Part shown: positions 804-63,284 of the stretch, piece by piece
Layout: each line of letters begins with the position of its first letter
Numbering within the stretch: position 1 is the stretch's first letter
From: a virus
Virus record (IMG/VR): IMGVR_UViG_3300003316_000080
Location: 3,483-67,482 of that record
Strand: one strand, 5' to 3'
Length of the DNA stretch: 64,000 nt
The notes under the pieces: model-generated
Databases searched by the model: none
What the model was told of the DNA's origin: nothing
What the model saw: the letters and a program-made list of their open reading frames with translations, nothing else
Program-made: the position numbers and the translations under genes

Positions 804-2255
804 GTGGAGATTCAAACCACGCTAGACGCAAGTCTGGCTGAGAACCTGTTGACGCTTCTGTGCTTTGACGACGAGCACTGCAAGCTGATCCGGTATGGGC
901 TGACGCCGCAGATGTTTGAATCGGCGGTGCTCAAGCAGATTGCCGGCGTCGCAATCGACTTCATCGATCAGTTTGGTGTCGCGGTCAAGGAGCACTTGCC
1001 CGACCACCTAGAAGACATCCTGAACGGTGAAGACCAGCGCAAGGCGAAGTCGTATCGGATGGTGCTGGAAAAGCTGTATGACTCGAAGGACGCGGTGAAT
1101 GCCGAGTTCGTCATGTCGCAGTTGCATGCATTCGTTCGCGCAGCCACGCTGAAGAGCGGACTGATGGACGCCGTTGCTCACATGGAGTCGGGCCGGATCG
1201 CGGAGTGCGAAACAGCCATGACGACAGCCTTGAGCCGTCAGGTGATTTCGTTCGAAGTGGGCACGCGACTGGACAATGCAGACAGCTTGTCGGAAGCGCT
1301 GACCAATCTGGAAGAACCGGGCTTCAACCTCGACATTGACGCTTTCGATCGCGTTGGTGCGATTCCACGCCGCAAGCAGCTGTCTGTGTTCTTGGCAGCA
1401 CGTGGCCGTGGTAAGTCATGGTGGTCGATCTACATGGGCAAGCAGGCGCTGCTGCAGCGCTGGTCCGTGCTGATTGTCACGTTGGAGTTGTCTGAGGCGT
1501 ACTACACGAAGCGCTTTCTGCAGTCGTTCTTCTCAATCTCGGACCGACAAGCCAAGGTGCTGGTGTCGGAGTTCAAGCGCGGACGTGATGGCTCGATCGT
1601 GGACGTCGTTCAGTCGGAACTGCACCGACGCACACTGCGTGACGATGACTCCTTGGAGTACATCGCAGCGCGAGCACGGCGCGAGTTCAAGCAACGCCCC
1701 CCGCTGATCATCAAGAACTTTCCTACAGCGACACTGACAGCTGAGACGCTGGAAGCGTATCTGGACGGTCTGCAGCGCCATCAGAACTTCACACCGGACC
1801 TGATCCTTGTCGACTATCCAGGCTTGATGAAGCTCGATCCCAAGAACAAGCGCATTGAGCTGGGATCGGCGGTGGAGCGTCTACGCGGCATTGCCGTAGC
1901 CCGCAACGCCCACATGGGGATCATGGCTCAGGGCAATCGTGAGTCGGAGACGGCACACACGGTCACGGCGGACATGACCGCCGAGGACATCTCGCTGTTG
2001 GCTACGGCTGACTTGTTCTTCACCTACAGCCAGACCAAGCTGGAGGAAAAGCTTAACCTCGCCCGCATCTTGTGTGAGAAGAACCGTAATGGTGTGGACG
2101 GCTTCGGGGCTCTGATCACACAAAGCTATGAGATCGGCCAGTTCTGCCTGGACTCCAGTCCGCTAGAAACTTCTTACTGGGAACTGGACGTGCACGAGCA
2201 GGAAGACGAGGACCGGCCGCGCCGCAAGAAGCGTCGCAACGAGGACGAAGAATGA
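804..2255 (+). CDS. DnaB-like replicative DNA helicase
   Basis: GTG start after AAGGA RBS; Walker A RGRGKS, DnaB-like Walker B LILVDYPGLM, MAQGNRE (H3-like). Confidence 0.7.
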   Translation: MEIQTTLDASLAENLLTLLCFDDEHCKLIRYGLTPQMFESAVLKQIAGVAIDFIDQFGVAVKEHLPDHLEDILNGEDQRKAKSYRMVLEKLYDSKDAVNAEFVMSQLHAFVRAATLKSGLMDAVAHMESGRIAECETAMTTALSRQVISFEVGTRLDNADSLSEALTNLEEPGFNLDIDAFDRVGAIPRRKQLSVFLAARGRGKSWWSIYMGKQALLQRWSVLIVTLELSEAYYTKRFLQSFFSISDRQAKVLVSEFKRGRDGSIVDVVQSELHRRTLRDDDSLEYIAARARREFKQRPPLIIKNFPTATLTAETLEAYLDGLQRHQNFTPDLILVDYPGLMKLDPKNKRIELGSAVERLRGIAVARNAHMGIMAQGNRESETAHTVTADMTAEDISLLATADLFFTYSQTKLEEKLNLARILCEKNRNGVDGFGALITQSYEIGQFCLDSSPLETSYWELDVHEQEDEDRPRRKKRRNEDEE

Positions 2256-5260: not shown

Positions 5261-5848
5261 ATGCGCAAGCAACTCGTTGCACACAAGGTGGCTCCGTTGC
5301 CGTTCGAGGGCAAGATAGCCGGCTACGTCGTGAACAACCTGGAGATGTGGAAGTACGAACCGCTCTTCACGTACAACGACATGATCCAAGAAGCCACGCT
5401 GGTGTGGCTGAAGTGCGGACAGGAATACCCGCACGTCGTCAGTAAACACTTTATGGCCCTGTTCAAGACGGCGTGGTATCGGCGCTGTGTCGATCTCGCC
5501 TATGAAGCATCGGAGTGCCGCGCACAGATCGCGATCACTTTCGGCGATACATACGGTTCGGATGACGAAACCATTGCGCTGGCTAAAGAACCGATGGGCG
5601 ATGAAGAGAACGCGGGCTACATGCGCACCCTGATCCGTCAGATCACGGAGCAGGCACCGGAAGAAGTCGTCAGCGTGTTCACGCTGATGCTCAATGCGCC
5701 GGTTGAACTGCTTGAACTGGCGTCGAACGCACTGGGACGTCGCAACAAGAACAACTCCAACATGATGGTTGCTCGTTGTCTGGGCCTGCCCGATGACAGC
5801 AAGCCTGTAGACGCAGCAAAAAGTTATGTACGCAGCGCACTGAAATAA
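5261..5848 (+). CDS. hypothetical protein, possible sigma-factor-like regulator
   Basis: ATG with GGAGGTG RBS (track ORF 5063 is an upstream extension); weak resemblance of NDMIQEATLVWLK to sigma region 2. Confidence 0.5.
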   Translation: MRKQLVAHKVAPLPFEGKIAGYVVNNLEMWKYEPLFTYNDMIQEATLVWLKCGQEYPHVVSKHFMALFKTAWYRRCVDLAYEASECRAQIAITFGDTYGSDDETIALAKEPMGDEENAGYMRTLIRQITEQAPEEVVSVFTLMLNAPVELLELASNALGRRNKNNSNMMVARCLGLPDDSKPVDAAKSYVRSALK

Positions 5849-14989: not shown

Positions 14990-15589
14990 ATGACCAGTAA
15001 AAAGTTACTGTGTGGAATCGATCCGGGCGCCAAGGGCGCCTTGGTCGTTTTGGATGAAGACGGCACGGTGATCGCGTGGTTGCTGATGCCCATGATCAAG
15101 CAGGGAACTCAGGAGCGTGTGAACGCTGCGGCTGTGGCGGCATTCCTGAAGCCCTATGCCGCCAACATCACAGCGAATCTCGAACTGGTCGGAGCAATGC
15201 CGGGTCAGGGCGTCGCCAGCATGTTCAGCTTTGGTCACTCGGCCGGCGTAGTTACTGGGGTACTGGGCGCACTGGAGATCCCTGTCACGCTGATCACGCC
15301 TCAGAAGTGGACGAAGCACTTCAACCTGGGTTCGAAGACAAAGAGCCCAGACCAAGCACGCGGCCTCGCAGCACGCTTCTGGCCCGCGTGGCGTGAACTT
15401 GACTTCAAGGGCAAAGGCGGTGCACTGGCAGACGCGGCGTTGATCGCGCGCTACAGCCTCGGACTCAATCGGGAAGCCATCGCGTATAACTCGGCACCGC
15501 GCAAGACGCGTCATGTGCTGAAAGAACTCGATGAAACTCCCCGCACTGCTGGTCGCCGACCTGCACCTGACGGCAAGCCCAGCCGATGA
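14990..15589 (+). CDS. RuvC-like Holliday junction resolvase
   Basis: N-terminal GIDPG, C-terminal ADAALIARY; RuvC-like size and layout. Confidence 0.7.
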   Translation: MTSKKLLCGIDPGAKGALVVLDEDGTVIAWLLMPMIKQGTQERVNAAAVAAFLKPYAANITANLELVGAMPGQGVASMFSFGHSAGVVTGVLGALEIPVTLITPQKWTKHFNLGSKTKSPDQARGLAARFWPAWRELDFKGKGGALADAALIARYSLGLNREAIAYNSAPRKTRHVLKELDETPRTAGRRPAPDGKPSR

Positions 15590-24290: not shown

Positions 24291-24409
24291 GATCCGCCTC
24301 CCTGGGACAGCGCGGCACTATCGGTTTCAGCCATGTAGCGATGCGCTGCGGATTGCGCTTTCAAGCGTTCGATCAGCGCTTCCAGCGCCTGGGTGCGTGA
24401 GGTGGTCAT
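24287..24409 (-). CDS. hypothetical small protein (40 aa)
   Basis: AAGGA RBS then ATG; translationally coupled to next gene. Confidence 0.3.
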   Translation of the reverse strand: MTTSRTQALEALIERLKAQSAAHRYMAETDSAALSQGGGS

Positions 24410-24458
24410 GGGTGTCCTTGGTGCGGGAATGTGGAATGTGGATAGGACTTAAGCCGTG

Positions 24459-24746
24459 TCAGGCGGGTCGAACAGCGTCAGGTGACACCGTGGCGAAGCG
24501 GCTCCGAGGGCTTTTGTAGTAGTCCATTTCAACGCGAAGTTGAATGCTGGCAGTCGTGCCGCTGCCAAAGTTCCAAGTGTGTACGGTGCAGCCCCAGATA
24601 GTGGCCGGTGACGGATTGACTTGGCGGCTGCTGAGTAGCACCCCGACACGTGTTCCAACTGGATAGAGGTCTGCGGCCAGGGCGAGTGCGTCGTCATGGG
24701 CTTTACCAACGGCGCCCAGTAGTTGGTTCAGGGCCTTTTCGTTCAT
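24459..24746 (-). CDS. hypothetical protein
   Basis: AAGGAGA RBS lying inside the C-terminus of the upstream gene. Confidence 0.5.
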   Translation of the reverse strand: MNEKALNQLLGAVGKAHDDALALAADLYPVGTRVGVLLSSRQVNPSPATIWGCTVHTWNFGSGTTASIQLRVEMDYYKSPRSRFATVSPDAVRPA

Positions 24747-24747
24747 G

Positions 24748-24981
24748 TCAGTTCTCCTTCACGATAGATTGCTTCAGTTGGGGATACTTTTCCTCCAAGT
24801 CGTCCAGCTGCTCGCGGGCGTGTTCACGTGTTTTCTCAAACACGGAGGTGAGCATGCTGGTCCATAGTGCATGACGCCGGCACGCCGACTCCCACATGCG
24901 CTGGTCGAAGGATTGGGCGAAGTCTTTGGGCACGGTGGTCCTGTCAGCGCGCTCTGATGCGCACCAGTATTCCCAAGCCAC
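24748..24981 (-). CDS. hypothetical protein, start uncertain
   Basis: C-terminal part looks coding and carries the RBS for the next gene; N-terminal limit unresolved (possible GTG at 24981). Confidence 0.3.
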   Translation of the reverse strand: MAWEYWCASERADRTTVPKDFAQSFDQRMWESACRRHALWTSMLTSVFEKTREHAREQLDDLEEKYPQLKQSIVKEN

Positions 24982-25270
24982 TGCCGCAGTACGTTGCGTG
25001 CACGCGGCATGCCTCTTCCAACGAGGCGCATTGCTGCAGGCGCGACCACGGGTGAAACCTGGACACACGCACTTGGACCTCCCAAGGAAACTGAAAGATG
25101 TGTTGCCGCTTGCGTTCAGCTTCACGATGCAATCGCTCCACAGCCTCAGTGGAGGATGGAAACCAGTCCTCCCACGAGGTGGGCTTGTGTGACGTGCCCC
25201 ATGCACCAGAGATCAGTGTCTGGATGTCCGCCAGGATTTGGTCACGCGATTTTTCGTCCCAGGTGGTCAT
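24944..25270 (-). CDS. hypothetical protein
   Basis: First gene downstream of the leftward promoter element at ~25300. Confidence 0.4.
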   Translation of the reverse strand: MTTWDEKSRDQILADIQTLISGAWGTSHKPTSWEDWFPSSTEAVERLHREAERKRQHIFQFPWEVQVRVSRFHPWSRLQQCASLEEACRVHATYCGSGLGILVRIRAR

Positions 25271-25296: not shown

Positions 25297-25356
25297 GGAG
25301 ATTGTATATAAACTTCAAGCCAGAACGCAAGCACTTTCTTAGAAACTTTTTACTGC
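25297..25356 (-). promoter_or_regulatory. conserved ~60-bp leftward promoter element (copy 1 of 3)
   Basis: Minus strand reads CAGTAAAAAGTTTCT, then TTGCGT-N18-TACAAT; near-identical elements at 59170-59217 and 62156-62213. Confidence 0.5.
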
Positions 25357-25526
25357 CCTCTACAATGAGCCACCTGACCTGCTGCGCGTGGCGGTCTGGG
25401 GTGGAAGGTGATCCAGCATCAGGCTGGTGACTACAGGGGCGCCAGCTTCTAACGAACTTCCACGCTCACGTGTGCCCGGCGGTGGGTTGCCGTCGGGCTC
25501 TTTTACACAGAATCGTTGGGGGTTGT

Positions 25527-26962: not shown

Positions 26963-27181
26963 ATGATCGACAGACGCACGCTGAGGCAAAGTGACCCCAA
27001 CAGTCTGGCGTCGCGTATCTGTGCCTTCTTCTCCAACAATCCCGACGAGATGCTCACGTACAGCGACATTGCTGTGAAGTTTGACTGTACGGTTGAACAA
27101 GCTCGCAATGCTGTGAATGATCTACGCAAGAGGAAGAAGGGCGTAGACACCAGTCACATCGTACACAGAGCGGGTCAGTAA
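26963..27181 (+). CDS. hypothetical protein, possible winged-helix DNA-binding
   Basis: AGGAGTG RBS; helix-turn-helix-like LTYSDIAVKFDCTVEQARNAVNDL. Confidence 0.4.
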   Translation: MIDRRTLRQSDPNSLASRICAFFSNNPDEMLTYSDIAVKFDCTVEQARNAVNDLRKRKKGVDTSHIVHRAGQ

Positions 27182-27192
27182 AAACTTTCTGG
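27176..27192 (+). promoter_or_regulatory. palindromic CAGTAAA..TTTCTG motif
   Basis: CAGTAAAAACTTTCTGG overlapping the stop of 26963..27181. Confidence 0.4.
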
Positions 27193-27501: not shown

Positions 27502-27921
27502 ATGGACGAAAAACGCAAACGTGGTCGGCCGGCTGGAGCAATGAACAAGCTCAGTCAGGAGGCTGTCAACCTCGCAAAGCAGACAGGTAAGTTGCCCCAT
27601 GAGATCTTGCTAGAGATCGCACGGGGCAATCCCATTTGTGTGCTGAGTATGGAAGAAGGCGTTCTGAAGCCTGTCTATGTCATGACAGATCCTGCACAGG
27701 TGCTTGATGCAGCAAAGGCAGCAGCACCGTACTTCGCGCCGAAGATTTCTACAGTTGAAGTGATTGCAGGGGTATCTGACCATGAACTTGATCGCATCAT
27801 TGCGCTCGCTGCCGCCGAAGCAGGCATTAGCCTTGGCGCTAGCGGAGAAGGCGAAGAGACAGAGGAAGAGGAACCAACTGAGCGAAGCAGCCGAAAGGGC
27901 CGTAGACAGCTACGCGAGTGA
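27502..27921 (+). CDS. terminase small subunit
   Basis: N-terminal KRKRGRPAG DNA-binding-type motif, PYFAPK motif, acidic tail; directly upstream of large terminase. Confidence 0.6.
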   Translation: MDEKRKRGRPAGAMNKLSQEAVNLAKQTGKLPHEILLEIARGNPICVLSMEEGVLKPVYVMTDPAQVLDAAKAAAPYFAPKISTVEVIAGVSDHELDRIIALAAAEAGISLGASGEGEETEEEEPTERSSRKGRRQLRE

Positions 27922-29629
27922 AGCAGAGGGGCCTCCTGTCCCTCTGCAGGTTTCCTCAGTCGTACTAGACGACACGCACGTAATCAGCCAACTGCTTACA
28001 ACAGGCAAGTTGTGTGCGGGTCCGTCTGCACAGCACATCCGCTACAAGATCTACTGGGGCGGTCGTGGTGCTGTGAAGTCGTGGGGCATGGCAGAAGCAC
28101 TAGTACGTCTGGCAGCTGCCAAGCCTCTACGCATACTGTGCTGCCGTGAGTTTCAGAACTCGATCAAGGACAGTGCACACAAACTGCTGAAAGACACGAT
28201 CGAGAGACTTGGTCTGTCTACGTGGTTCACTGTCACTGCCGACAGCATCAAGTCTCGTGTCGGTGCAGAGTTCATGTTCAAAGGCCTGCACAACAACGAG
28301 AACGGCATCAGGTCGACTGAAGGCGTAGATATCTGCTGGGTGGAAGAAGCACACAGCGTTACTGCACTTAGCTGGCAGAGCCTACTGCCCACGATCCGTG
28401 GTGACGAGTCAGAGATCTGGATCTCGTTCAACATGGTCGAAGAGAGTGATGCTACGTACCAGATGTTCGTAGCAAATGAACGCCCTCACTCGATCGTTCA
28501 CCACATCAATTACGACAGCAATCCGTTCCTACCGAAAGTGCTCCGTGATGAAATGGAGCACGACAAGAAGACGGACTACGCGCTGTACGAGCACATCTGG
28601 CTGGGCAAGCCTCGCAAGCGTAGTAACGCAATCGTCCTCAACGGCAAGTACCGCATTGAGGAATTCCCAGATGATCTGTACGAACACGCAGATAGGTTGT
28701 TCTTCGGTGCTGACTGGGGCTATGCAGAAGATCCGTCCACGCTGGTGCGTTGCTTCATCCTGAACAACAAGCTGTACATCGAGTACGAGGCATACGGCAA
28801 GCACATCGAACTGAACGACTACGCTGCGTTCTATGACCAAGTGCCCGGGTCACGTGACTGGCCTATCTATGCCGACAGCGCGTTGCCAGCAACGATCTCG
28901 CATGTGCGCGGTCTGGGCTTTGCGATCGATGCGGCAGAGAAGTGGCCGGGCAGTGTCGAAGACGGCATCAAGCATCTGCGGGGGTACGACGAGATCATCA
29001 TTCACCCGCGCTGCAAGATGGCGGCCGACGAGGCTTACAAGTGGCGGTACAAGGTCGACAAGAAGGTGCTGGATGCCAACATGCAGCCACTCGTACTGCC
29101 CACGCTGGTAGACGCACACAATCACTGCATTCCGGCTGGCGTGCTTGTGTCTACTGCGTGTGGCGATGTGCCTATTGAGCAAGTACAAGTAGGCGACCTC
29201 GTGTGGACGCGTGTTGGTCTGCGTCCTGTGTTGTGGGCAGGTGCCACAGACACGAACCGTGAAGTGCTGGAGATCACGTTGTCATCTGGTCATGTAGTGC
29301 GCTGCACTCCTGACCACGAAGTCTTCGTGAATGGTGAGTTCATTCGTGCAGACGCTGCTCAGGTGTCTGACAACATGAACACACTCGACAGCACGGCACA
29401 TGGCAGGCGAATTGGCACTGCGTCTGTAGTCTCTATCACTCGCATCGCGGAAAAGGCTGATGTTGTCTATGACGTAACGGTCGATGGACAACACGAGTTC
29501 TTCGCGAATGGTGTGCTGGTTCACAACTGCTGGGACGCGGTCCGGTACGCCCTACATGGCTACATCCCCAGATCGGGTGAGATGGGCGTGTGGAACAGAC
29601 TAGGCGCCCAAGCTCTGGGACAATCCTGA
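27782..29629 (+). CDS. terminase large subunit, intein-containing
   Basis: Walker A-like YWGGRGAVKS, C-terminal nuclease domain; start uncertain (first in-frame ATG overlaps TerS by ~140 nt). Confidence 0.8.
   Translation: MNLIASLRSLPPKQALALALAEKAKRQRKRNQLSEAAERAVDSYASEAEGPPVPLQVSSVVLDDTHVISQLLTTGKLCAGPSAQHIRYKIYWGGRGAVKSWGMAEALVRLAAAKPLRILCCREFQNSIKDSAHKLLKDTIERLGLSTWFTVTADSIKSRVGAEFMFKGLHNNENGIRSTEGVDICWVEEAHSVTALSWQSLLPTIRGDESEIWISFNMVEESDATYQMFVANERPHSIVHHINYDSNPFLPKVLRDEMEHDKKTDYALYEHIWLGKPRKRSNAIVLNGKYRIEEFPDDLYEHADRLFFGADWGYAEDPSTLVRCFILNNKLYIEYEAYGKHIELNDYAAFYDQVPGSRDWPIYADSALPATISHVRGLGFAIDAAEKWPGSVEDGIKHLRGYDEIIIHPRCKMAADEAYKWRYKVDKKVLDANMQPLVLPTLVDAHNHCIPAGVLVSTACGDVPIEQVQVGDLVWTRVGLRPVLWAGATDTNREVLEITLSSGHVVRCTPDHEVFVNGEFIRADAAQVSDNMNTLDSTAHGRRIGTASVVSITRIAEKADVVYDVTVDGQHEFFANGVLVHNCWDAVRYALHGYIPRSGEMGVWNRLGAQALGQS
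29126..29527 (+). mobile_element. mini-intein within terminase large subunit (134 aa)
   Basis: Begins CIPAGVLV (block A), TPDH (block B), ends GVLVHN followed by +1 Cys; no endonuclease domain. Confidence 0.7.
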
Positions 29630-32461: not shown

Positions 32462-32572
32462 ATGAAATGGATGTACCGCTTCGGCCTCGCGGCCGTGCTC
32501 GCCTTCGTCTCTTCCCTCGGGCATGTCCAGGCCACGGACGCACACCCACAAGCACAGACAGCGCGGCAGTAA
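32462..32572 (+). CDS. small secreted peptide (36 aa) with signal peptide
   Basis: AGGAGA RBS; MKWMYRFGLAAVLAFVSSLGHVQA then TDAHPQAQTARQ; too short for the ORF track. Confidence 0.35.
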   Translation: MKWMYRFGLAAVLAFVSSLGHVQATDAHPQAQTARQ

Positions 32573-32584
32573 ACAGTTTCTGCC
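32565..32584 (+). promoter_or_regulatory. palindromic CAGTAAA..TTTCTG motif
   Basis: GGCAGTAAACAGTTTCTGCC followed by TATATAGGG. Confidence 0.4.
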
Positions 32585-32633
32585 GTATATAGGGCGCGGG
32601 AGCGATCTTGCGCCCTTTCCTTTTGGAGAACTC

Positions 32634-34177: not shown

Positions 34178-34372
34178 ATGACTGAACTGACACGTGTCCG
34201 CAACGAAGAACGATGCAAGGCTGTGCCGGGCGCGTACATCACTGATGACGGACACGTGCTTGTGGACAGCACCAACGCAACGTCACCACTTGAAGTGCTG
34301 TGCGCGATCGCAGTGCTGGTGACTGCAAGGACAATGCGTCGGATGAAACACCCGCCCGTGCCGACACGATGA
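34178..34372 (+). CDS. hypothetical small protein
   Basis: GGAGG RBS; ATGA overlap with downstream HNH gene. Confidence 0.35.
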   Translation: MTELTRVRNEERCKAVPGAYITDDGHVLVDSTNATSPLEVLCAIAVLVTARTMRRMKHPPVPTR

Positions 34373-34824
34373 AGCTCACCAAGAAACAACGTGAAGCCCT
34401 TAAACAGAAGTTCGGGGGCTTTTGTGCATATTGCGGCTGCAAACTTGGTGAGCGCTGGCAGGCGGATCACATACAGGCCGTTCAGCGCAGTGTGCAGGGA
34501 CATTGGGTGCGCCAAGACCCTAGCAAGCGCTGGTCGCCGATGGTGTTCAAGCGCACCGGCGTCACTGTGGGTCGGCCGGAACTGGACATCCTTGACAATC
34601 TTGCACCAGCGTGCGGACCTTGCAACGGCGATAAGTCCGATATGGACCTAGAGACGTGGCGCCATCGCCTCTCTCAAACATTGACCGTGCTGGGCAACAA
34701 CTACGGTCGGTACAAAGACGCCCTGCGCTTCGGGTTGATCGTCGAAACCCCCAAGCCCATAGAATTCCACTTCGAGCGGTGGCAACGGACCCCGCGCCGC
34801 CAACTGAAAGAGGACACCCTATGA
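34369..34824 (+). CDS. HNH endonuclease (packaging-associated position)
   Basis: CAYCGCKLGERWQADHIQAV...NLAPACGPCNGDK; immediately upstream of portal. Confidence 0.75.
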   Translation: MKLTKKQREALKQKFGGFCAYCGCKLGERWQADHIQAVQRSVQGHWVRQDPSKRWSPMVFKRTGVTVGRPELDILDNLAPACGPCNGDKSDMDLETWRHRLSQTLTVLGNNYGRYKDALRFGLIVETPKPIEFHFERWQRTPRRQLKEDTL

Positions 34825-37065: not shown

Positions 37066-37139
37066 TACACTGGCGGCGCCTGCGGTGGTCTGAACAGCGC
37101 CGCAGGCTGTTTGTCTCCAATGTGGCTAATCACCACTTC

Positions 37140-37170
37140 AGCCCGGTGCAACACACCGGGCTTTTTCTTT
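37140..37170 (+). terminator. rho-independent terminator
   Basis: AGCCCGGTG...CACCGGGCT stem followed by TTTTTCTTT. Confidence 0.5.
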
Positions 37171-37255
37171 GCTACGATGCTTACGCTTTCACGAGCAGAC
37201 TCCGAGAGAAGGGGAATAGACGTGAACCGGGGCCGATACCGGTGATCGTCGGCTA

Positions 37256-37342
37256 GGGCCGGTTGACACGTGGGGTCACCGGCCCTTGTTTTATGTTCTC
37301 GCGGGATATCTATAATCCCTGCCACCAGTAAAAAGATTCAGG
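37256..37342 (+). promoter_or_regulatory. hairpin plus promoter-like region upstream of head genes
   Basis: GGGCCGGT/ACCGGCCC hairpin containing TTGACA, then TATAAT (37311-37316), then CCAGTAAAAAGATTCAGG (37325-37342). Confidence 0.4.
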
Positions 37343-37353: not shown

Positions 37354-38853
37354 ATGAAGCTCTTGGTCAAATCCTCTTGGTGGAGGTCACTTGTGACACG
37401 AAAACGAGTTCGCACCATTGACCGCGCTGCCGGGGATTTCCACACTCCCCTGCAACTAGGCCCGAAGCGCCGTATGACGCCGGAAGGCTTCCTACTCTGT
37501 GAAGACGTCCCCATTGGACGCACAGGTGAACTGCTCTATGCAGCTGGTGAAGTTCCGGTGGAACCTGACCGGCGCGGTCTCATCACCATCACCCGGGATG
37601 CCGCCGCCCTCTTCCACCCCGACACGATCGCCAGTTTCAACGGCAAGCCGGTTACCGACAATCACCCGCCCGGTATGGAGGTAAGCCCGGACAACTACCT
37701 GATGTACGGCAAAGGCTTCACGGTGAATGCCCGCCGTGGTGAAGGTGAGTACAGCGACTGCATCGTGGCAGACCTACTCATCATGGATAAGCACACCATC
37801 GCGAAGATCATCGCGGGGAAGGTCGAAGTCTCGTCGGGATACAAGGCAGACTACGAAGACAACGGCGGCGGCTTCGGCCGTCAAATCGCCATCCTGGGCA
37901 ATCATGTAGCGCTGGTCGATAAAGGTCGCTGTGGCCCGCGCTGTGCTATCGGCGACCATGACACCACTGAAGGAGAAGAGGAAATGCCAACACCGAACGC
38001 CAAACCGGCGAACAAGGGTCAGCGTGCGCAACTGCTCGCACACGCGCTCAAGGCTGCTCTGACCGCCGACGAGGCGGGCGAGTTGGCCGATCAACTGGCC
38101 GGCGACAACGCGGGTGATCCCGTCGACGGCGCCACCCACATCCATTTCCACAGCAGCGGCGCCACGCTGAGCCCCACGGGCGCTGACGGCGGCGCTGCCT
38201 CGAAGACCGGCACCACGACCGGCGACGAGCGCATGGACAAGCTGGAGAAGATCGTCGGCGACATGGGCACCACGCTCAAGACTGTCGGCGATTCCGTCGC
38301 TGAACTCATGAAGAAGTTCGGCGGCCCCGGTGGCGACAGCGCCGCGACGACCGAAGAAGACGGCAAGAAGACGGGCGACGAAGGCTCCGGCGAGGATGAC
38401 AAGTCCAAGACGGGCGATTCCGCCGCTCTGGCGACCAGCTATGCCAAGCTGGCCCAGGACTGCGAGATTCTCGTGCCGGGCTTCAAGCCGCCGACGCTGG
38501 ACACCAAGGCCAAGCGCAGCGCTACCGTGGACAGCATGTGCGCGATCCGTCGCAACGCGCTGGGCCACTTCGCGATGGCTCCCGGTGCCGCCCAGGTGAT
38601 CCAGGCCGCGTCGGGTGATGCCCAGTTCAACGTGGCAACCGCCGACTGCGCCACCGTCGCTGAGGTGTTCAGCGCCTCGGTGATGGCGAAGCGGATGGCG
38701 AACAACCAAGCCGCCACCGGTGACGCTGCCAAGATCCCGGCGCTGCTCAAGCCTGTCGGTGTCTCGTCGTCTGGCGCTCCGGCGTCCCTGAGCCCTGCTG
38801 ACCTCAACAAGCAGTACTCGGACTTCTGGGCCAAGCAGAACCGCATGAACTGA
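37354..38853 (+). CDS. prohead protease / scaffold-like protein
   Basis: AGGAAG RBS; N-terminal EGFLLCEDVPIGRTGELLY resembles phage prohead protease (XkdF/DUF2213-like); Gly/Asp/Thr-rich C-terminus. Confidence 0.5.
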   Translation: MKLLVKSSWWRSLVTRKRVRTIDRAAGDFHTPLQLGPKRRMTPEGFLLCEDVPIGRTGELLYAAGEVPVEPDRRGLITITRDAAALFHPDTIASFNGKPVTDNHPPGMEVSPDNYLMYGKGFTVNARRGEGEYSDCIVADLLIMDKHTIAKIIAGKVEVSSGYKADYEDNGGGFGRQIAILGNHVALVDKGRCGPRCAIGDHDTTEGEEEMPTPNAKPANKGQRAQLLAHALKAALTADEAGELADQLAGDNAGDPVDGATHIHFHSSGATLSPTGADGGAASKTGTTTGDERMDKLEKIVGDMGTTLKTVGDSVAELMKKFGGPGGDSAATTEEDGKKTGDEGSGEDDKSKTGDSAALATSYAKLAQDCEILVPGFKPPTLDTKAKRSATVDSMCAIRRNALGHFAMAPGAAQVIQAASGDAQFNVATADCATVAEVFSASVMAKRMANNQAATGDAAKIPALLKPVGVSSSGAPASLSPADLNKQYSDFWAKQNRMN

Positions 38854-38854
38854 A

Positions 38855-38872
38855 GCAGTAAACAGTTACTGC
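38855..38872 (+). promoter_or_regulatory. perfect palindrome GCAGTAAACAGTTACTGC
   Basis: Sits 1 nt after the protease/scaffold stop and upstream of 38899. Confidence 0.45.
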
Positions 38873-40903: not shown

Positions 40904-41569
40904 ATGGACACAAGAGTTCGCAAGGTTTACGCGTTGATGGACCCACGTGGGGCTGTAACCAGCGTCCGATATGTCGGGTGCACGCTTCAGAAGATTCTGA
41001 ACAGGTTGCAGTCCCACATTTACGAAGCAGAGACGAGTCCTGATGTCACACCAAAGCTTGTGTGGTTGCGAGCGCTGGCCGACGCGGGTTTAAAGCCTCT
41101 GATCGTGCACTTGGAAACAGTGGCACCTGAAGACGACTGGCAAGAGCGTGAGAAGTACTGGATCGCGAAATACAGCGGACCTGAATTGCTCAACACAACG
41201 ACAGGTGGTATCGGGGCACAGGGTTTAGCCCAAGATGTTCGTGATCGAATTTCGGAAGCGCTGCGCGGTCGTAGCCTGAGTGAAGAGCACAAAGCAAAGC
41301 TACGGAAGAACGCAGCAGAGAACCCATACAAGCACACAGAAGAAGCGAAGCGCGCTATCTCGGAGTCCAAGAAAGGTCTGAAGTTAGGACCCTTGTCCAA
41401 CGAAGCCAAGCAGAAACTGCGTGATGCCATGGGCTCTCTGGTGTGGATCACCAACGGGCGGGAAAACCGACGTGTGAAAGCAGATGCCATTCCGGCTGGG
41501 TGGCAGAAGGGGCGAGCCCCAAAGGACCAGCCAAAGCAATCACGCCGCGTACTTCGCGACGACCTTTAA
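40904..41569 (+). CDS. GIY-YIG homing endonuclease with NUMOD3-like repeats
   Basis: KVYALMDPRGAVTSVRYVGCT (GIY-YIG); C-terminal repeats HKAKLRK, EEAKRAISESKKG, NEAKQKLRDAMG. Confidence 0.8.
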   Translation: MDTRVRKVYALMDPRGAVTSVRYVGCTLQKILNRLQSHIYEAETSPDVTPKLVWLRALADAGLKPLIVHLETVAPEDDWQEREKYWIAKYSGPELLNTTTGGIGAQGLAQDVRDRISEALRGRSLSEEHKAKLRKNAAENPYKHTEEAKRAISESKKGLKLGPLSNEAKQKLRDAMGSLVWITNGRENRRVKADAIPAGWQKGRAPKDQPKQSRRVLRDDL

Positions 41570-43975: not shown

Positions 43976-45481
43976 ATGGCAACCACGCCCGTTCAATTAC
44001 CGCTGTCTCGTCTGATCAACGTCGCTGTTGTTCTGACCGCAGCAGCTGCTCAAGCGCAGAACCTGTCGACCCTGCTCATCCTGGGCACGTCATCTGTGAT
44101 CGACACCGTGACGCGCCAGCGCGATTACGAATCCCTCACCGATGTCGGCGCCGATTTCGGCAGCAGCGCACCTGAATATCTGGCCGCCCAGATCTACTTC
44201 GCGCAGTCGCCTCAGCCCACCACGCTGAAGATCGGCCGCTGGTTCCTGACGGCCGCTGCGGGCTCGCTGGTGGGTAAGACACTGAGCGCGGCTGAACAGA
44301 CACTGGCGAACTTCACTGCCGTGACCTCGGGTGGTTTCACCTACACCAAGAACGGCGGCGCTCCGACCAACGTGACGGGCATCAATCTGTCCACGGCAAC
44401 CAACCTCAACGCGGTTGCCTCGCTGATCACGGCGGCGCTCACGGGTGCCACGATGGTCTGGAATGCGCAGTACCAGCGCTTCGAACTGACTTCGGCCGCC
44501 ACCGGCGCGACTTCAGCGATCAGCTTTCTGACGGCGCCGGGCTCTGGCACCGACATCAGTGCACTGCTGGGCATGACGGCCGCATCGTCGGGTGCCTACC
44601 AAGCGCCCGGTGCTGACGCAGAAACGCCGATCGCCGCAGTAACGTTGTTCGAGCAGAACTGGGGCCAGACGTGGTACGGCCTGCAGATGCTGGGTATCAG
44701 CGGTGGCGGCGCAACTGCTGACCATCTCGCTGTCGCTCAGTTCATCGAAGGCACGAACACGAAGCACGTGTACGGCATCACGACTCAGGATGCAGCGGCC
44801 CTCGTGCAGGGCAACACCACCAACGTCGGTGCGGTCATGAAGGCCAACGGCCTAGACAAGACGATGGTGCGCTATTCGTCGAAGTCGCCGTATGCGGTCG
44901 CAACTGACTTCGGCCGCATGCTGACGGTGAATTACAACGGCGAAAACACCGTCATCACGATGATGTACAAGCAGACGCCGGGGCTGGAGGCTGAGGCCAT
45001 CAACAGCACGCAGGCGAACGCGCTGCAGTCCAACAACATCAACGTGTCGGCGGGCTACTCGAACGGCACCGCAATCACGCAGTACGGCGTCATGTCGTCG
45101 GGTGAATACATCGACACGATCTTTGGCATCGACTGGCTCGCGGTGACCGTGCAGACGAATCTGTACAACGCCCTGTACACGACGACCACGAAGATCCCCC
45201 AGACCGACGCCGGTCAGAACCTCCTGAACACCAAGGTGGAAGAGGTCTGCCAACAGGGTGTGACCAACGGTCTGCTGGCACCGGGCGTGTGGAACGCAAC
45301 AGGCTTCGGCACGCTGAAGCAAGGCGACTACATGGAGAAGGGCTACTACGTGTACAGCGCTCCGATGCGCACGCAGAACCAGTCCGATAGGCAAGCACGC
45401 AAGTCGATGCCGATCCAGGCCGCTGCCAAGCTCGCTGGTGCGATCCACACGGTGCAACTGACCGTTACCGTCAACCAGTAA
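43976..45481 (+). CDS. tail sheath protein
   Basis: ~500 aa Thr/Ala/Gly-rich protein immediately upstream of tube and chaperone genes. Confidence 0.6.
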   Translation: MATTPVQLPLSRLINVAVVLTAAAAQAQNLSTLLILGTSSVIDTVTRQRDYESLTDVGADFGSSAPEYLAAQIYFAQSPQPTTLKIGRWFLTAAAGSLVGKTLSAAEQTLANFTAVTSGGFTYTKNGGAPTNVTGINLSTATNLNAVASLITAALTGATMVWNAQYQRFELTSAATGATSAISFLTAPGSGTDISALLGMTAASSGAYQAPGADAETPIAAVTLFEQNWGQTWYGLQMLGISGGGATADHLAVAQFIEGTNTKHVYGITTQDAAALVQGNTTNVGAVMKANGLDKTMVRYSSKSPYAVATDFGRMLTVNYNGENTVITMMYKQTPGLEAEAINSTQANALQSNNINVSAGYSNGTAITQYGVMSSGEYIDTIFGIDWLAVTVQTNLYNALYTTTTKIPQTDAGQNLLNTKVEEVCQQGVTNGLLAPGVWNATGFGTLKQGDYMEKGYYVYSAPMRTQNQSDRQARKSMPIQAAAKLAGAIHTVQLTVTVNQ

Positions 45482-45507
45482 GAACTTTCATCTGAAGGAG
45501 AGCCACC

Positions 45508-46658: not shown

Positions 46659-48104
46659 ATGGCAGCTGGTTCCTCTGAAGTCCTGCGCGAGTATCTGATT
46701 CGTCTGGGCTTCCAGATCGACCAGCGCGGCCAACGCAACTTCGACACGGCAACGGTCAACATCCAGAAACGCGTGATGGGAATCGCGCAGGCTGTGACCG
46801 CCGTGACGGGTGCTGCAACCGCAATGGTTGTCTCGTACACCCGCGACATGGAGAAGATGTATTACGCCTCCCGTAAAGCGGAGGCGCCTGTCGCAGCGCT
46901 GAACAACCTCGCATACGGATACCGTCAGATCGGACTGGATGGTAAACAGGCGATTGCCACAGTCGAAGGCATTGCACGCAGCATGCGCAGCAACCCGGGC
47001 TTGACGGCATTGCTGAAGGACCTGGGAGTGCCCGTGCAGGGCCGCACCAAAGATCAGGTACTGCTGGACCTCGTCGGTGCCTTGCGCAAGATGCCTGAGC
47101 ACATCGCCATCCAGTACGGCAACCTGTTTGGGATCGACCCTGATCAGCTGAAACTTCTTACTGAAGGCTATGACAAGTTGCTGGCTGCTGAGAAGCAGCG
47201 CCAGATGATGACGCAGGGTCTGAACATCGATACAGAGGCAGCGGCAAAGGCTGCTGTCGAATATGCGAATGCACTCGACAAGGTGACGGAGCGCGCCAAG
47301 ATCCTGTTTAGCGTCATTTCCGTTGGCATGCTGCCTTACTTCAAGCAGATGACGTCCAATCTGGACGAGATGCTGAAGAGCATGACACGCGTCGCTGCTT
47401 TTGCTCAAAAGGCCACGCCTGCTGAATTCTGGGCAGAGACGAAGAATCAGGCCCGGCTGCTGTGGGAGACGCTGTCGGGCAGTCGCGGCAGTGTGACGCT
47501 GAGCCCGCGAGCCCAGGCGCAGAAGGACACAGCAGGCTTGTCGGGCCTCCCCGCCCTCCCACCAGGGCCGCCAGCGCCAGCTGGCAATTTGCCCCTAGGC
47601 CTGCGGAACAACAATCCTGGCAACTTGCGCGCCGGCTTGGGTCAGACGGGCATGAACCGGGGGTTCGCAACTTTCGACACGCCGGAGCAGGGCCTTGCTG
47701 CAATGGCGCGGCAGCTACTGCTGTACCAGAACCGCGACGGCCTCAAGAACATCTCGCAGATCATCAAGAAGTACGCACCGGCCAGCGAGAACAACACACA
47801 GGCATACATCGACGCAGTAACGAAGGCGACAGGCTTCAACTCTCAGGAGTACATTGACCTCAACGCGACAGGCAATCTGGCCGCGATCATGGAGGCCATG
47901 GTCAAGCACGAGAATGGGCGCAATCCGTTCTCGTCTGCCCAGTTTGAGACAGCGGCACGTCAGGGTGCCGCCTTCCAGCAGCAGACCAATATCACCGTCT
48001 ATGGCGCCACAGACCCCACAGCAACGGCAAATGCCATCGGCGGTCAGCAGCGCTCTGTCAACTCCGATCTGATGCGTCAGATGGGCACACGCAAGGTGGA
48101 ATAA
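46659..48104 (+). CDS. tail tape measure protein
   Basis: AAGGAG RBS; long helical protein following chaperone pair. Confidence 0.55.
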   Translation: MAAGSSEVLREYLIRLGFQIDQRGQRNFDTATVNIQKRVMGIAQAVTAVTGAATAMVVSYTRDMEKMYYASRKAEAPVAALNNLAYGYRQIGLDGKQAIATVEGIARSMRSNPGLTALLKDLGVPVQGRTKDQVLLDLVGALRKMPEHIAIQYGNLFGIDPDQLKLLTEGYDKLLAAEKQRQMMTQGLNIDTEAAAKAAVEYANALDKVTERAKILFSVISVGMLPYFKQMTSNLDEMLKSMTRVAAFAQKATPAEFWAETKNQARLLWETLSGSRGSVTLSPRAQAQKDTAGLSGLPALPPGPPAPAGNLPLGLRNNNPGNLRAGLGQTGMNRGFATFDTPEQGLAAMARQLLLYQNRDGLKNISQIIKKYAPASENNTQAYIDAVTKATGFNSQEYIDLNATGNLAAIMEAMVKHENGRNPFSSAQFETAARQGAAFQQQTNITVYGATDPTATANAIGGQQRSVNSDLMRQMGTRKVE

Positions 48105-53660: not shown

Positions 53661-55745
53661 ATGGCGACCAATGAATTTCTGCCCTTTGCCACAGACGCTG
53701 GCGCCGAGGTTGATACTCAGGCTGTGTGGGCTTCTCCTAGTGGTTACCGCCCGGTAGGTTATGGACCTGGGATTCTGACGAAAGAAAAGCTGAACAAGGC
53801 TCTTCGTCAGAGCACCTCTATCGCCTCTGCCGTCGCTCAATTGATGGCAGAGAACCTGCCCAGTGAAGACATCCTGGATAACGGTGACATCAACACGTTG
53901 GTGGACCAACTCTCGCGGGCTGTGATCACCGGTACATTCCTGAGTGGCACTGCCAGCACGCAGGGCTCGAACGCCGTTGGCACGCGTCAGAACTTGGCAG
54001 GGGCTGTCGATCGCACACAACATGAAAAGAACGCCGACTTCATCAGCGTGAAGGATTTCGGTGCTGTTGGTGACGGTGTGCACGATGACACGACGGCTTG
54101 CGTGGCCGCAGCCACGGCCGCTCTTGCAGTTGGAGCGGGTCTGTATTTTCCAGACGGCCGCTATTACATCAACGGACTTTTCAGTGTCCCGAACAAAGTA
54201 TCTTTGTATGGGTCTGGTAAGACTACCAGCGAGATCCAGTTCGGTTCCTCTGGAAGCCTTCGTGTGGTCGGCACATCACCCAGCTACGTGGGGCGTTTGT
54301 CTATCAGTCGACTAGGCTTGACCAATCAGGGCGCGGGTTCCCCCTTCGGCATTCAGTTCACGTATGCGACTCGCATCACGATGTACGACTGTGTCGTCTA
54401 TAACACCAGCATTCAACTGTCTGCGTTCTCGTACATCACCTTTGAAAACTGTGACCTGTTTGGTGGCAGCATTCAAGGCGACCACCCCACAGTCAACGAG
54501 ATCAGTGAAGCACTGAAGATCATCGGCTGCAACGGCAGCAACTTTGCGATTAACGTGAAGGACACTGCCGACGTTCTCGTGTCACGTACACATCTGCTTG
54601 GGCCCACCTCACAGATCATGATCCAGCGTGGCGAGCAAAACAGCGCGTTTTACCCACCTGTACAGATTGCCAATTGCATTGTGGATTCTGGTGATGATGA
54701 AGGCATTTATCTGATTGGCGTTGCGCCAAGAATTTCGGATACCTTCGTCAGCAGTGGTCGCACCAACCTGAAGTCAGGTGTGCGCTTGAATGATTGCATT
54801 GAAGGCAGCTTGATCGGTGTTACGGCGCGCTTTTGCGGCAATCATGGTCTGCATGTTGGCTTCAGCAAGCAGATCAAGGTTTTGGGGGGCCATTTTGACG
54901 ACAACAAGGTGTCGGGTGTGCGTATCGGTGATTCGTCAGATCTGACTTTCATCGGCAATACGATGATGAACCAGCCATCGTGGTTCGGTGGTAGCTACCC
55001 ACAGGTAAACGGCATCACGGATGAGCCCTCGAACTGCACGAACATCACATGCATCGGAAATCAGACGGTGGGCAACACGAGTGCTCAGGTGTACCTGCCG
55101 TCTGCTACCAACATCATCCACAGCAACGTCGGATACAACGAAGGTCGCCTGACCTGTGATAGCTGGCGCAACAACACGGACAATGCGGCGTCTCTTGGGA
55201 CTGCCGGCGCTAGATACACCGTGGTGCATGCGGTCAGTGGCACCATCAACACGTCAGATGCCAATGAAAAGCAGGATATCGAAGATATTCCTGTGGAGTG
55301 GTTAGAGGCATGGTCCTCCGTAAGGCGTGTGCGCTTCAAATGGAAGGACGCTGTGCAGAAGAAAGGCACCGGTGCCCGTTGGCACATCGGTCTGATTGCA
55401 CAAGAGATCTGGGAGGCTTTCGCCGCTCGCGGTATCGACGCGTTCGAGATTGGTCTTCTGTGTTATGACGCGTTCGAAGAAGTACCAGAGCGCACGGTGG
55501 AAGTGCCTGAAATCCCGGCACTCGTCATCGAGCACCCAGAAGTTCCTGAAGTGCTGGATGAAGACGGCCGTGTCATACAAGAATACAAGCCAGGATGGCA
55601 CGAAGTGGTCGAAGAAGCGCAGCCAAGCCGTGTAGTAGTCGTCCAGGAGTACAAGCCTGCTGGTGGTCGCTATGGTGTGCGTTACGAAGAGGCTGAGGCA
55701 CTAGAGGCCGCTTGGGTTCGCTGGAAATTGGAATCTCTTCAGTAA
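53661..55745 (+). CDS. tailspike: pectate-lyase-like beta-helix with C-terminal S74-type intramolecular chaperone
   Basis: KDFGAVGDGVHDDTTA (pectate-lyase-superfamily start), repetitive beta-helix region, C-terminal SDANEKQDIEDI...WHIGLIAQEI. Confidence 0.65.
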   Translation: MATNEFLPFATDAGAEVDTQAVWASPSGYRPVGYGPGILTKEKLNKALRQSTSIASAVAQLMAENLPSEDILDNGDINTLVDQLSRAVITGTFLSGTASTQGSNAVGTRQNLAGAVDRTQHEKNADFISVKDFGAVGDGVHDDTTACVAAATAALAVGAGLYFPDGRYYINGLFSVPNKVSLYGSGKTTSEIQFGSSGSLRVVGTSPSYVGRLSISRLGLTNQGAGSPFGIQFTYATRITMYDCVVYNTSIQLSAFSYITFENCDLFGGSIQGDHPTVNEISEALKIIGCNGSNFAINVKDTADVLVSRTHLLGPTSQIMIQRGEQNSAFYPPVQIANCIVDSGDDEGIYLIGVAPRISDTFVSSGRTNLKSGVRLNDCIEGSLIGVTARFCGNHGLHVGFSKQIKVLGGHFDDNKVSGVRIGDSSDLTFIGNTMMNQPSWFGGSYPQVNGITDEPSNCTNITCIGNQTVGNTSAQVYLPSATNIIHSNVGYNEGRLTCDSWRNNTDNAASLGTAGARYTVVHAVSGTINTSDANEKQDIEDIPVEWLEAWSSVRRVRFKWKDAVQKKGTGARWHIGLIAQEIWEAFAARGIDAFEIGLLCYDAFEEVPERTVEVPEIPALVIEHPEVPEVLDEDGRVIQEYKPGWHEVVEEAQPSRVVVVQEYKPAGGRYGVRYEEAEALEAAWVRWKLESLQ

Positions 55746-55782
55746 ACTTCTTACTGGGCCGCTGAAGTGGCGGCCTTTACAC
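55740..55782 (+). terminator. palindromic motif plus terminator hairpin after late operon
   Basis: CAGTAAACTTCTTACTG overlapping stop codon, then GGCCGC...GCGGCC hairpin and TTTACAC. Confidence 0.45.
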
Positions 55783-58061: not shown

Positions 58062-58063
58062 GT

Positions 58064-59141: not shown

Positions 59142-59169
59142 GTTGTTGCTCCAATGAGAAAGGGTGCAG

Positions 59170-59217
59170 AGATTATATACAAACCTCTGCACCCTCTACA
59201 AGAAACTTTTTACTGGT
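59170..59217 (-). promoter_or_regulatory. conserved leftward promoter element (copy 2 of 3)
   Basis: Minus strand: CAGTAAAAAGTTTCT, then TTGTAG-N18-TATAAT; overlaps the stop of 59217..59666. Confidence 0.5.
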
Positions 59218-61347: not shown

Positions 61348-61348
61348 G

Positions 61349-62155: not shown

Positions 62156-62213
62156 CGGAGATTGTATATAAACTCTGCACCGTTGCAAGCACTTTCCAGA
62201 AACTTTTTACTGG
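62156..62213 (-). promoter_or_regulatory. conserved leftward promoter element (copy 3 of 3)
   Basis: Minus strand: CAGTAAAAAGTTTCT, then TTGCAA-N16-TACAAT. Confidence 0.5.
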
Positions 62214-62312: not shown

Positions 62313-63284
62313 TCAAACCGTCAGGGACACTTCATTGCCGGCCGCCCGCTGCAGGCCGGCCAGGGTGCCGAAGGTGAAGGCCAGCGCCATGTCCTCATCG
62401 CCCCGGATGCGGCGCATCAGGTCAGCACCGGGCTTGATGCCCTGCTCTTCCATCAGCTTCGCGAGCGCCTCAGACACTTCCAGGCCCAGCTTGTTCAGTT
62501 CGGCGTCGGTCAGGGCACGCATCTTGGCGACACGGCCGCGCTTGGCTTCCTTCTCCACGCGCTTGCGCTCGACGTCGCGCTTGACCTCGGCCAGTTCGCC
62601 TTTGTCCTTGGCGCTGACGGCGCGGCGCGTCAGTTCCTTCTGGGCTTCCTTGTCGCCCTTGGCCGCCGTGGCGATCTCCTTGGCGAGGGTGGCGCCCATC
62701 TTGCCCTTCTTGACGGCATCCTTGACCTCGTCGTCGGCCGAGATCAGGTTGAGCGTCTTGATGACGTGGGGGCCCGACCGCGACACGACAGCCTTGATGC
62801 CTTCGATCGTCAGGCCCTCTGCTCGCATGTCGGCGTAGAACGCAGCTTCTTCGAGAGGCTCCATGTTCTTGGCGGCGTTGGCCTCAGCCATCTCGATCAG
62901 TTCTTCCAGGCGCGTCATCGGCGGCGACACCAGAGCGCCGATGCCCTCGGGGAAGTTATACGCCAGTTCGTGCTTGGGGTCTTTGGCGTAGTGCTCCAGC
63001 ATCAGGTCGATCGCGGCCATGCGGCGCTTGCCGTCCTTCAGACGGTACTTCTTGCCGTCGATGGGCTCCTTCAGTTCGATCAGGTGCACGTCATGCAGCA
63101 GGCCACCGGCGCGGCCGACGTCGACCGCTTGGTGCTTGATGGAGCGCGCGAGGCCCTCCAGGTCACCGAGGTCGTACCGCTTGTTGTTGGCGTTGTCGGT
63201 GGTGATCTGGTCACGCTTGACCATCATCCGTTCCACCGGATGCACCGGCTTGCTGCTGTCCTTCAGGGTGGCTCGTTTCGTCAT
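62313..63284 (-). CDS. ParB-like protein (partition or nuclease-type)
   Basis: ParB N-terminal-type motifs KRYDLGDLEGLARSIKHQ and YRLKDGKRRMAAIDL; Lys/Glu-rich C-terminus. Confidence 0.6.
   Translation of the reverse strand: MTKRATLKDSSKPVHPVERMMVKRDQITTDNANNKRYDLGDLEGLARSIKHQAVDVGRAGGLLHDVHLIELKEPIDGKKYRLKDGKRRMAAIDLMLEHYAKDPKHELAYNFPEGIGALVSPPMTRLEELIEMAEANAAKNMEPLEEAAFYADMRAEGLTIEGIKAVVSRSGPHVIKTLNLISADDEVKDAVKKGKMGATLAKEIATAAKGDKEAQKELTRRAVSAKDKGELAEVKRDVERKRVEKEAKRGRVAKMRALTDAELNKLGLEVSEALAKLMEEQGIKPGADLMRRIRGDEDMALAFTFGTLAGLQRAAGNEVSLTV

Follow-up and report, generated by a model that had tools for sequence, protein, structure and literature searches.

A 16-bp element recurs twelve times in the 64-kb window analysed here, the stretch of a tailed-phage genome (~59% G+C) taken from IMG/VR record IMGVR_UViG_3300003316_000080, and it is a real, selected and lineage-specific feature of this uncultured, ZHS-like phage. 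Its copies are non-random, lie at promoters, at gene ends and in two cases inside genes, and are conserved in sister phages. We propose, with a probability of about 0.5, that they are double-stranded DNA sites (operators) for one phage-encoded, sequence-specific regulator; for any particular binder our confidence is lower. Such a regulator would probably bind as a dimer to two 6-bp half-sites, CAG(T/A)AA, placed 10 bp apart around an A/T-rich centre. Copies at promoters would set initiation at three leftward σ70-type promoters, at a divergent rightward promoter (25361) and at the TATAAT promoter of the head gene 37354, while intercistronic copies that follow a stop codon, and those within genes, would serve as secondary, distal or roadblock sites, so that together they would form a genome-wide timing circuit. 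We infer that a protein binds the copies and, on the same footing, which protein this would be and whether it would repress or activate.

The first-pass annotation of this DNA had described nine copies of a palindromic motif, six on the plus strand and three at leftward promoters, at a frequency far above chance. All nine were found where it had placed them, and a scan of the window with shuffled controls agreed on the excess: the refined 14-mer CAGTAAAAAGTTTC has 12 sites at ≤2 mismatches against 0.10 expected, and none of 100 shuffles reached 12. The family thus numbers twelve rather than nine, with members at 14995, 27176, 32567, 37326, 38856 and 45476 on the plus strand and at 2166, 25342, 47150, 55743, 59202 and 62199 on the minus strand; the additions are 45476 (+), 2166 (−) and 47150 (−), and the site at 55740 reads on both strands. 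(Minus-strand copies 25340..25355, 59200..59215 and 62197..62212 are called 25349, 59209 and 62206 below.) The 16-mer pattern gave 18 strand-matches at 2 mismatches against 0.34 expected, and CAGTAAA alone occurs 14 times in the window against 1.9 expected. An unbiased repeat search seeded from all non-coding DNA returned the motif as the clear top family and the sole AT-rich one seeded by non-coding DNA, the other families all being G+C-rich coding noise. Ten of the 12 copies are non-coding or lie ≤20 nt from a gene end, compared with a background of 14% (binomial P = 1.4e-7). Four intragenic variants of the form CAGTAAA-N3-TT(T/G)AT(G/C), at 5440 and 8488 (+) and at 11933 and 18745 (−), share the left arm and carry another right arm; these CAGTAAA variants are weaker matches (5 extra CAGTAAA against ~1.9 expected).

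The consensus, CAGTAA(A/G)(A/C)AG(T)TT(T/A)CT(G), is only quasi-palindromic. Its left part, CAGTAA, is invariant, the 5′ section CAGTAAAAAG is the most conserved of the motif, the centre reads (A/G)(A/C)AG, and the right arm is mostly TTTCTG rather than TTACTG. The palindrome described earlier therefore holds for part of the family: GCAGTAAACAGTTACTGC at 38855-38872 is a perfect 7+4+7 palindrome, and perfect CAGTAA/TTACTG arms occur in 3 of 12 copies (14995, 38856 and 55740), whereas copy 37326 (CAGTAAAAAGATTCAG) has almost no dyad symmetry. The half-sites lie 10 bp apart from centre to centre, the usual spacing for a helix-turn-helix (HTH) dimer. A comparison of flanking columns among the copies revealed no second conserved block at a fixed distance from the motif.

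Conservation in sister phages

Close relatives came solely from Logan/ENA, via exact or near-exact protein look-ups. The window phage itself is 100% identical in a Logan assembly (loci L196, L203 and L204). Run SRR21418947 contributed two loci at ~81% nucleotide identity to the window (L198 and L202), run SRR28495859 one at 93% (L197), three other runs loci at 92-97% (L207, L208 and L210), and an ENA metagenome scaffold 97% identity over one module (L205). Further records behind these sister genomes are SRR31214434 (a 66-kb contig), SRR35255263 and ERZ28567297. Searches of IMG/VR, JGI metagenomes and GTDB genomes with the DUF2213 protein, the major capsid protein and the terminase returned relatives of ≤65% amino-acid identity, none with the motif. 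An exact IMG/VR scan for CAGTAAAAAGTTTCT gave single chance matches in unrelated contigs only, a longer pattern joining promoter and motif had zero matches in IMG/VR, and the conserved 19-mer had only chance matches, in bacterial and archaeal metagenome-assembled genomes.

The copies covered by these assemblies are all kept in L198, L207, L208, L210 and L205. In L198, the motif carries 2 changes in 32 positions compared with 74 in 307 in flanking non-coding DNA (Fisher p = 0.012, strict count), and both changes fall in the central spacer. At the 37326 ortholog of L198, CCAGTAAAAAGATTCAGGA is identical at 19 of 19 positions, while the promoter spacer and the Shine-Dalgarno (SD) spacer have diverged and a 2-nt indel separates TATAAT from the motif; across L198, L207 and L208 this copy is conserved at 16/16 positions. 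At the 38856 ortholog, L198 keeps both arms and changes the centre from ACAG to GAAG, and copy 45476 is identical in L207, L208 and L210. The motif survives both where its TAA is used as the stop codon and where it is not, as comparisons of the window with L198 at 38856 and with L207 at 55740 show, so it is not a coding by-product. Conservation in related phages, which had been named as a check, thus holds among the sister phages and ends before the more distant Edwardsiella phage vB_EpM_ZHS (ZHS). This closest cultured relative (30-63% amino-acid identity, syntenic) is without the motif, and its ortholog of 38856 keeps only a CAGTAAG half-site. An analogous ZHS motif of other sequence was considered and rejected, since AT-rich-seeded, intergenic-seeded and palindrome searches gave coding-type noise only.

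Placement at promoters, stop codons and within genes

Five copies lie at or beside promoter-like sites. In three cases the copy precedes the −35 of a leftward, σ70-like promoter by 0-9 bp, and these three promoters are near-identical. Copy 62206 (CAGTAAAAAGTTTCTG, 62197..62212, −), a perfect consensus, follows the terminator of the ParB-family gene (62237-62265) and stands 8 bp upstream of the −35 of the promoter TTGCAA-N16-TACAAT (62188-62161, −). Copy 25349 (CAGTAAAAAGTTTCTA, 25340..25355, −) belongs to a divergent control region and precedes by 9 bp the −35, TTGCGT, of a leftward TACAAT promoter. Both copies share one layout of motif, 8-9 bp, TTGCAA or TTGCGT, 16-18 bp and TACAAT. Copy 59209 (CAGTAAAAAGTTTCTT, 59200..59215, −) is separated by 1 nt from the stop codon of gene 59217-59666. 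Relative to the other two it is nearer to its promoter by one helical turn, abutting or overlapping TTGTAG, which is followed by 18 bp and TATAAT. The promoter scan confirmed 62188-62161 only, the hexamers and spacings at 25349 and 59209 having been read by eye. On the other strand, the reverse complement of copy 25349 overlaps the −35 and spacer of a rightward promoter-like site, TTAGAA-N16-TACAAT (25361-25366, +). Copy 37326 (CAGTAAAAAGATTCAG, 37326..37341, +) lies 9 nt downstream of a conserved TATAAT (37311-37316), at about +1 to +16, and abuts the SD of the head gene 37354-38853; the copy and its TATAAT come after a terminator.

Two further promoter features are recorded in their own right. 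Downstream of the rightward site 25361 runs a ~110-nt leader that contains, just ahead of the gene opening the long rightward block, a strong terminator (25474-25498), an arrangement (25361-25526) of the attenuator or antitermination type. A promoter at 3812-3840 (TTGAGA-17-TACAAT), inside the 3′ end of the primase gene, carries the same TATACAATCT −10 block as the leftward promoters.

Seven copies come within 0-6 nt of the stop that ends the upstream gene, in short intergenic spaces, in keeping with the earlier remark that most copies overlap or follow a stop. The TAA within CAGTAA is itself that stop codon at 27176, 32567, 45476 and 55740, and the motif starts 2, 1 and 6 nt after the stop at 38856, 59209 and 14995, respectively. 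Copy 27176 (CAGTAAAAACTTTCTG, 27176..27191, +) ends the gene of a predicted 72-amino-acid winged-helix protein (26963-27181) and enters the SD of the next gene with its 3′ end. Copy 32567 (CAGTAAACAGTTTCTG, 32567..32582, +) ends the open reading frame 32462-32572 and is followed 8 nt on by a hairpin (32591-32616) that scores as a terminator; a G+C hairpin also directly follows copy 55740 (CAGTAAACTTCTTACTG, 55740..55756), a 17-nt palindrome at the tail-fibre stop whose minus strand reads CAGTAAGAAGTTTACTG. The weaker copy 45476 (CAGTAAGAACTTTCAT, 45476..45491, +) covers the stop of the sheath gene and precedes the ATG of the tube gene by 16 nt; its membership is partly coincidental, CAGTAA being conserved coding sequence (VNQ*) in distant relatives. 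The palindrome at 38855..38872 (+) stands between gene 37354-38853, whose stop precedes it by 2 nt, and the ATG of 38899, which follows after 27 nt. Copy 14995 (CAGTAAAAAGTTACTG, 14995..15010, +), as annotated earlier, lies inside the start of the RuvC-like gene (14990-15589), of which it forms codons 2-7 in the context MTSKKLLCGIDPG, 6 nt past the previous stop. The remaining two copies, both CAGTAAGAAGTTTC, are intragenic and antisense, one within the helicase gene (2166..2179, −; gene 804-2255) and one within gene 46659-48104 (47150..47163, −); being identical in different reading frames, they appear to be selected as DNA and not as coding by-products.

Of the ten boundary copies, nine point the same way as the genes around them and one is symmetric; both intragenic copies are anti-oriented (9:2 plus one ambiguous). 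This bias is suggestive only, because three copies belong to paralogous promoters, four are tied to a stop-codon TAA and the two intragenic ones point the other way. It nevertheless keeps alive an orientation-dependent mode like that of the stoperators of L5-type phages, where more than 20 asymmetric 13-mers occupy promoters and short intergenic spaces with an orientation tied to transcription and are bound by a monomeric repressor with an HTH and a stoperator domain (PMC9283540). By analogy, an asymmetric and possibly monomeric repressor would block initiation at the promoter copies and elongation at the intercistronic ones. The asymmetric consensus, the many dispersed copies, their largely shared orientation and their placement both at promoters and beside stop codons fit the published description of such sites. 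However, the sites here are 16 bp long and partly palindromic rather than 13-bp and asymmetric, they number 12 rather than more than 20, two are anti-oriented inside genes, and the bias is in part forced by stop-codon use and promoter paralogy. Moreover, no homolog of the cluster A (L5 gp71-type) repressor, an HTH plus stoperator-domain protein of ~180 amino acids, was detected among ~30 small proteins (Pfam and PHROGs) or in PDB sequence searches with four candidates, and neither an integrase nor any further hint of lysogeny appeared in the subset of proteins scanned. The host is also presumably Gram-negative, as the nearest cultured relative infects Edwardsiella. We regard a stoperator-type system as unlikely.

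Candidate regulators

Among ~30 proteins, small or of unknown function, that were scanned with Pfam and PHROGs, only two emerged as candidates for sequence-specific DNA binding, besides an HTH within a large methylase. The regulator of the proposed operators may be one of these two, a predicted winged-helix protein of 72 amino acids or a ParB-family protein. The first (26963..27181, +), one of two regulators proposed in the first-pass annotation, is basic and predicted to be a winged HTH protein; its single-sequence model has the order H1-β-H2-H3-β with a clear HTH stretch (mean predicted local distance difference test score, pLDDT, 72), and its top fold matches are all DNA-binding domains from transcription factors, nearly always of the winged-helix type. 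Its gene ends inside copy 27176, and gene and copy travel together as a 241-bp module into another context in L205. The protein has no homolog in ZHS or any cultured phage, so that its distribution matches that of the motif, both being missing from ZHS. Moreover, the gene belongs to the operon that follows the rightward promoter overlapped by copy 25349, a position that would allow autoregulation through this copy.

The other regulator named earlier, 5261..5848 (195 amino acids), fared less well. It belongs to a family of 314 clusters at 50% identity with a near-invariant D40..Q43-E44 resembling sigma region 2.2, but its identity as a sigma factor was not confirmed by Pfam, NCBIfam, PDB phmmer, a 65-member profile or hhalign against RpoE, leaving only the sigma-region-2-like DxxQEA. 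Structure modelling of the first early gene (61908-62114, 68 amino acids) gave only weak XRE- and C-protein-like matches, and this gene was set aside. Sites for sigma54, CRP, LexA, IHF, Fis and the T4 MotA box, compared by eye with consensus sequences, were discarded for misfits in spacing or core bases.

The second candidate (62313..63284, −) is a ParB-family protein with an HTH_ParB domain (PF17762, E 1.3e-7; phrog_32069 ParB-like, E 3e-20), in which residues 138-233 align with the parS-binding domain of Caulobacter ParB (6s6h/6t1f). It also has an arginine-patch segment, DGKRRMAA, resembling GxxRxxA, and a perfect motif copy lies ~100 bp downstream of its gene. These features raise the alternative that the motif is a loading site of the KorB/ParB type, at which a CTPase-like protein would silence promoters both proximally and distally, possibly together with the winged-helix protein in the manner of KorA. 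KorB operators are 16 bp long and lie either 4-10 bp upstream of the −35 or 45 to more than 1000 bp away (PMC11790492); here, two copies lie 8-9 bp upstream of a −35, one abuts it and others are distal or intragenic, and, as with the O_B sites of plasmid RK2, a 16-bp dyad is accompanied by genes for a ParB-family protein and a small HTH protein. Against this stand the absence of any ParA or partition context in a phage rather than a plasmid, the imperfect palindromes of all but three of the 12 copies and the failure of Pfam to detect a ParBc N-terminal domain in 62313-63284. ZHS and MAR10-like Vibrio phages keep a ParB homolog with no recurrent motif or palindrome, and L202, whose ParB is 86% identical, has no copy next to the ParB locus. 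On balance, we consider a ParB-type loading site an improbable explanation.

A third alternative makes the motif a stand-alone promoter element, −10-like or extended, read by the host RNA polymerase with a phage sigma-like factor or co-activator for middle or late transcription. Co-oriented boundary copies do lie just upstream of the structural genes 27200, 32634, 37354, 38899, 45508 and 55794, the 5′ part is the best conserved, and the two best single-sequence PDB matches of 5261-5848 are both SigA region 2. Those matches have E ~0.5, however, only 1 of 65 family members touches Sigma70_r2 (E 0.0085), hhalign gives a probability of 2.5%, and ZHS has a 5261-5848 homolog without the motif. A second conserved element at a fixed distance is missing, and at 27176 and 37326 the ATG follows the end of the motif by only 8-12 nt, which leaves no room for a leader. 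Copy 14995 falls within the start of the RuvC coding sequence, two copies run antisense to the genes that contain them, three stand upstream of complete σ70-type promoters and 37326 is already preceded, at 9 nt, by a conserved TATAAT of its own. No phage RNA polymerase was found, the large 830-amino-acid protein being a methylase and the 745-amino-acid one of unknown function, and a promoter for such a polymerase was dropped from consideration. A promoter element of this kind is a weak possibility, which we hold to be doubtful.

Returning to the operator reading, several observations weigh against it. The consensus is asymmetric (T at position 4, T instead of A at position 13, centre AAAG), and a symmetric dimer would not require that nine boundary copies be co-oriented with transcription. 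Positions relative to promoters are heterogeneous, so that no single regulatory sign fits all copies, and the strong σ70-like promoter at 3812-3840 has no copy at all. The substitution-based conservation comes from two sites in one sufficiently diverged relative, to which closer relatives add no power. As for the binders, the winged-helix fold matches of 26963-27181 are non-significant (E ≥0.4) and come from a model of one sequence, and the ParB homologs of ZHS (37% identity) and of MAR10-like Vibrio phages occur in genomes that lack the motif.

Dispersed sites of this kind are already known from other phages and plasmids (stoperators, KorB O_B, P1 C1), and the element does not represent a new principle. 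Phage P1 carries more than a dozen asymmetric 17-bp C1 operators across its genome at promoters, and dimers of lambda Cro, an α/β HTH protein of ~66 amino acids, recognize 17-bp quasi-palindromes within a region of divergent promoters. The 72-amino-acid candidate and the location of copy 25349 between divergent promoters recall Cro; unlike either system, many copies here lie away from promoters, there is no sequence similarity to C1 or Cro, and no lysogeny module was seen among the proteins scanned. A more elaborate scheme, which we advance only tentatively and think unlikely to hold in full, is that a presumably virulent myovirus lineage infecting Gram-negative hosts has evolved its own genome-wide silencing and timing network: the small winged-helix protein, possibly with the ParB-family protein in KorA/KorB fashion, would bind 12 oriented 16-bp sites, switch early promoters and block or gate read-through at cistron boundaries, a stoperator-like action outside actinobacteriophages, with the sites doubling as seams of module exchange. 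If one phage protein binds the 12 sites, they make up a compact regulatory map for an uncultured phage group, one that takes in the three early promoters pointing leftward, the divergent switch region and the promoter of the head gene. The idea of dispersed operators for one regulator would then extend past mycobacteriophages, P1 and IncP plasmids and take in stop-codon and intragenic sites. The motif is also a practical marker of the lineage, being absent from its nearest cultured relative, and its copies are ready probes for a pull-down of the regulator.

DNA site, RNA hairpin or mosaic seam

The dyad had originally been read as either a site for a dimeric protein or a conserved RNA hairpin. 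An RNA-level element at cistron boundaries, acting as a processing or stability site or as a translational operator in folded or single-stranded form, is suggested by the sense transcription of most copies, by the SD sequences that 27176 and 37326 abut, and by L198, which keeps the arms and changes the loop. In RNA folding, four of ten copies (14995, 32567, 38856 and 55740) proved significantly more stable than their shuffles, with z between −2.8 and −4.4. However, the other six, namely the three perfect-consensus promoter copies, 27176, 37326 and 45476, form no structure better than shuffles, the perfect-consensus copies folding at 0 to −3.7 kcal/mol, and copy 37326 is conserved at 16/16 positions without being palindromic. 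No compensatory changes were seen in the relatives, and an Rfam search matched no family. Copy 25349 can act only as DNA, because no predicted mRNA includes it as sense sequence, and the copies at 2166 and 47150 run antisense to their genes. What the copies share is sequence, not structure; that the sequence is conserved while the fold is not, and that it keeps set distances to promoter hexamers, speaks for recognition as duplex DNA. Of the two original options, the protein site thus gains from half-site spacing, promoter positions, copy 25349, the antisense copies and conservation, and we judge the hairpin to be quite improbable.

Two copies, 27176 and 55740, lie at mosaic seams. In L205, where copy 27176 is exactly conserved at the junction of a gene insertion, homology starts 1 nt before the 72-amino-acid gene and ends at the next ATG, with a different 133-amino-acid gene inserted after motif, SD and ATG. 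In L207, an unrelated distal tail-fibre module is joined exactly at copy 55740, where homology resumes. In L202 (1704-2086 versus window 62115-62312), another gene replaces the motif, its promoter and the 68-amino-acid gene directly after the conserved ParB terminator, which makes this terminator a mosaic junction beside a ParB that is 86% identical. These junctions would suit boundary sequences that mediate module exchange between related phages and have no regulatory role, but a 16-bp element is short for homologous exchange, gene boundaries are where junctions would be expected in any case, syntenic and unrearranged DNA surrounds most copies (37326, 38856, 45476 and 47150), and the fixed promoter geometry would go unexplained; we consider this explanation highly improbable. 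T4-like PeSL cassettes likewise repeat near-identical early promoters at the borders of variable small-gene clusters, coinciding with mosaic junctions; in contrast, only 3 of 12 copies here belong to a repeated promoter, and the 16-bp motif also occurs promoter-free.

The wider genome is that of an apparently virulent myovirus. A rightward replication and recombination module (72-23370) encodes RNase H, helicase, primase, clamp, polymerase, clamp loader, RecA, RuvC-like and SbcCD-like proteins and two DNA methylases, and is followed by a short leftward gene cluster (23539-25270), a long rightward block (25527-57450) of small genes, terminase, portal, Mu-F, head, sheath, tube, baseplate and fibre genes, and a leftward, early-looking cluster that includes the ParB-family gene (57447-63911). 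The two methylases at 19710-23370, a C5 cytosine methylase and the 830-amino-acid N6/N4 methylase with an embedded HTH_31, have no ZHS counterpart, and the 7-deazaguanine genes of ZHS (tgt-like, FolE and QueC) have none in the window. A 110-nt non-coding block between the Mu-F-like and head genes (37066-37175) is ~95% conserved in the 81%-identical L198, folds to −47.4 kcal/mol (z −3.8) and ends in the terminator 37140-37162, making it a candidate small RNA. The terminase large subunit (27782-29629, 615 amino acids) carries an intein, with Pfam Intein_splicing and Hint matches, and the ZHS terminase aligns with it over 385 residues only. An HNH gene (34300-34824) adjoins the portal gene, and a 221-amino-acid gene (40904-41569) with a faint Pfam match to NUMOD3 lies between the major capsid gene and the next gene; it is missing from L207 (5996-6079) and present in L208, and is probably a mobile homing-endonuclease gene.

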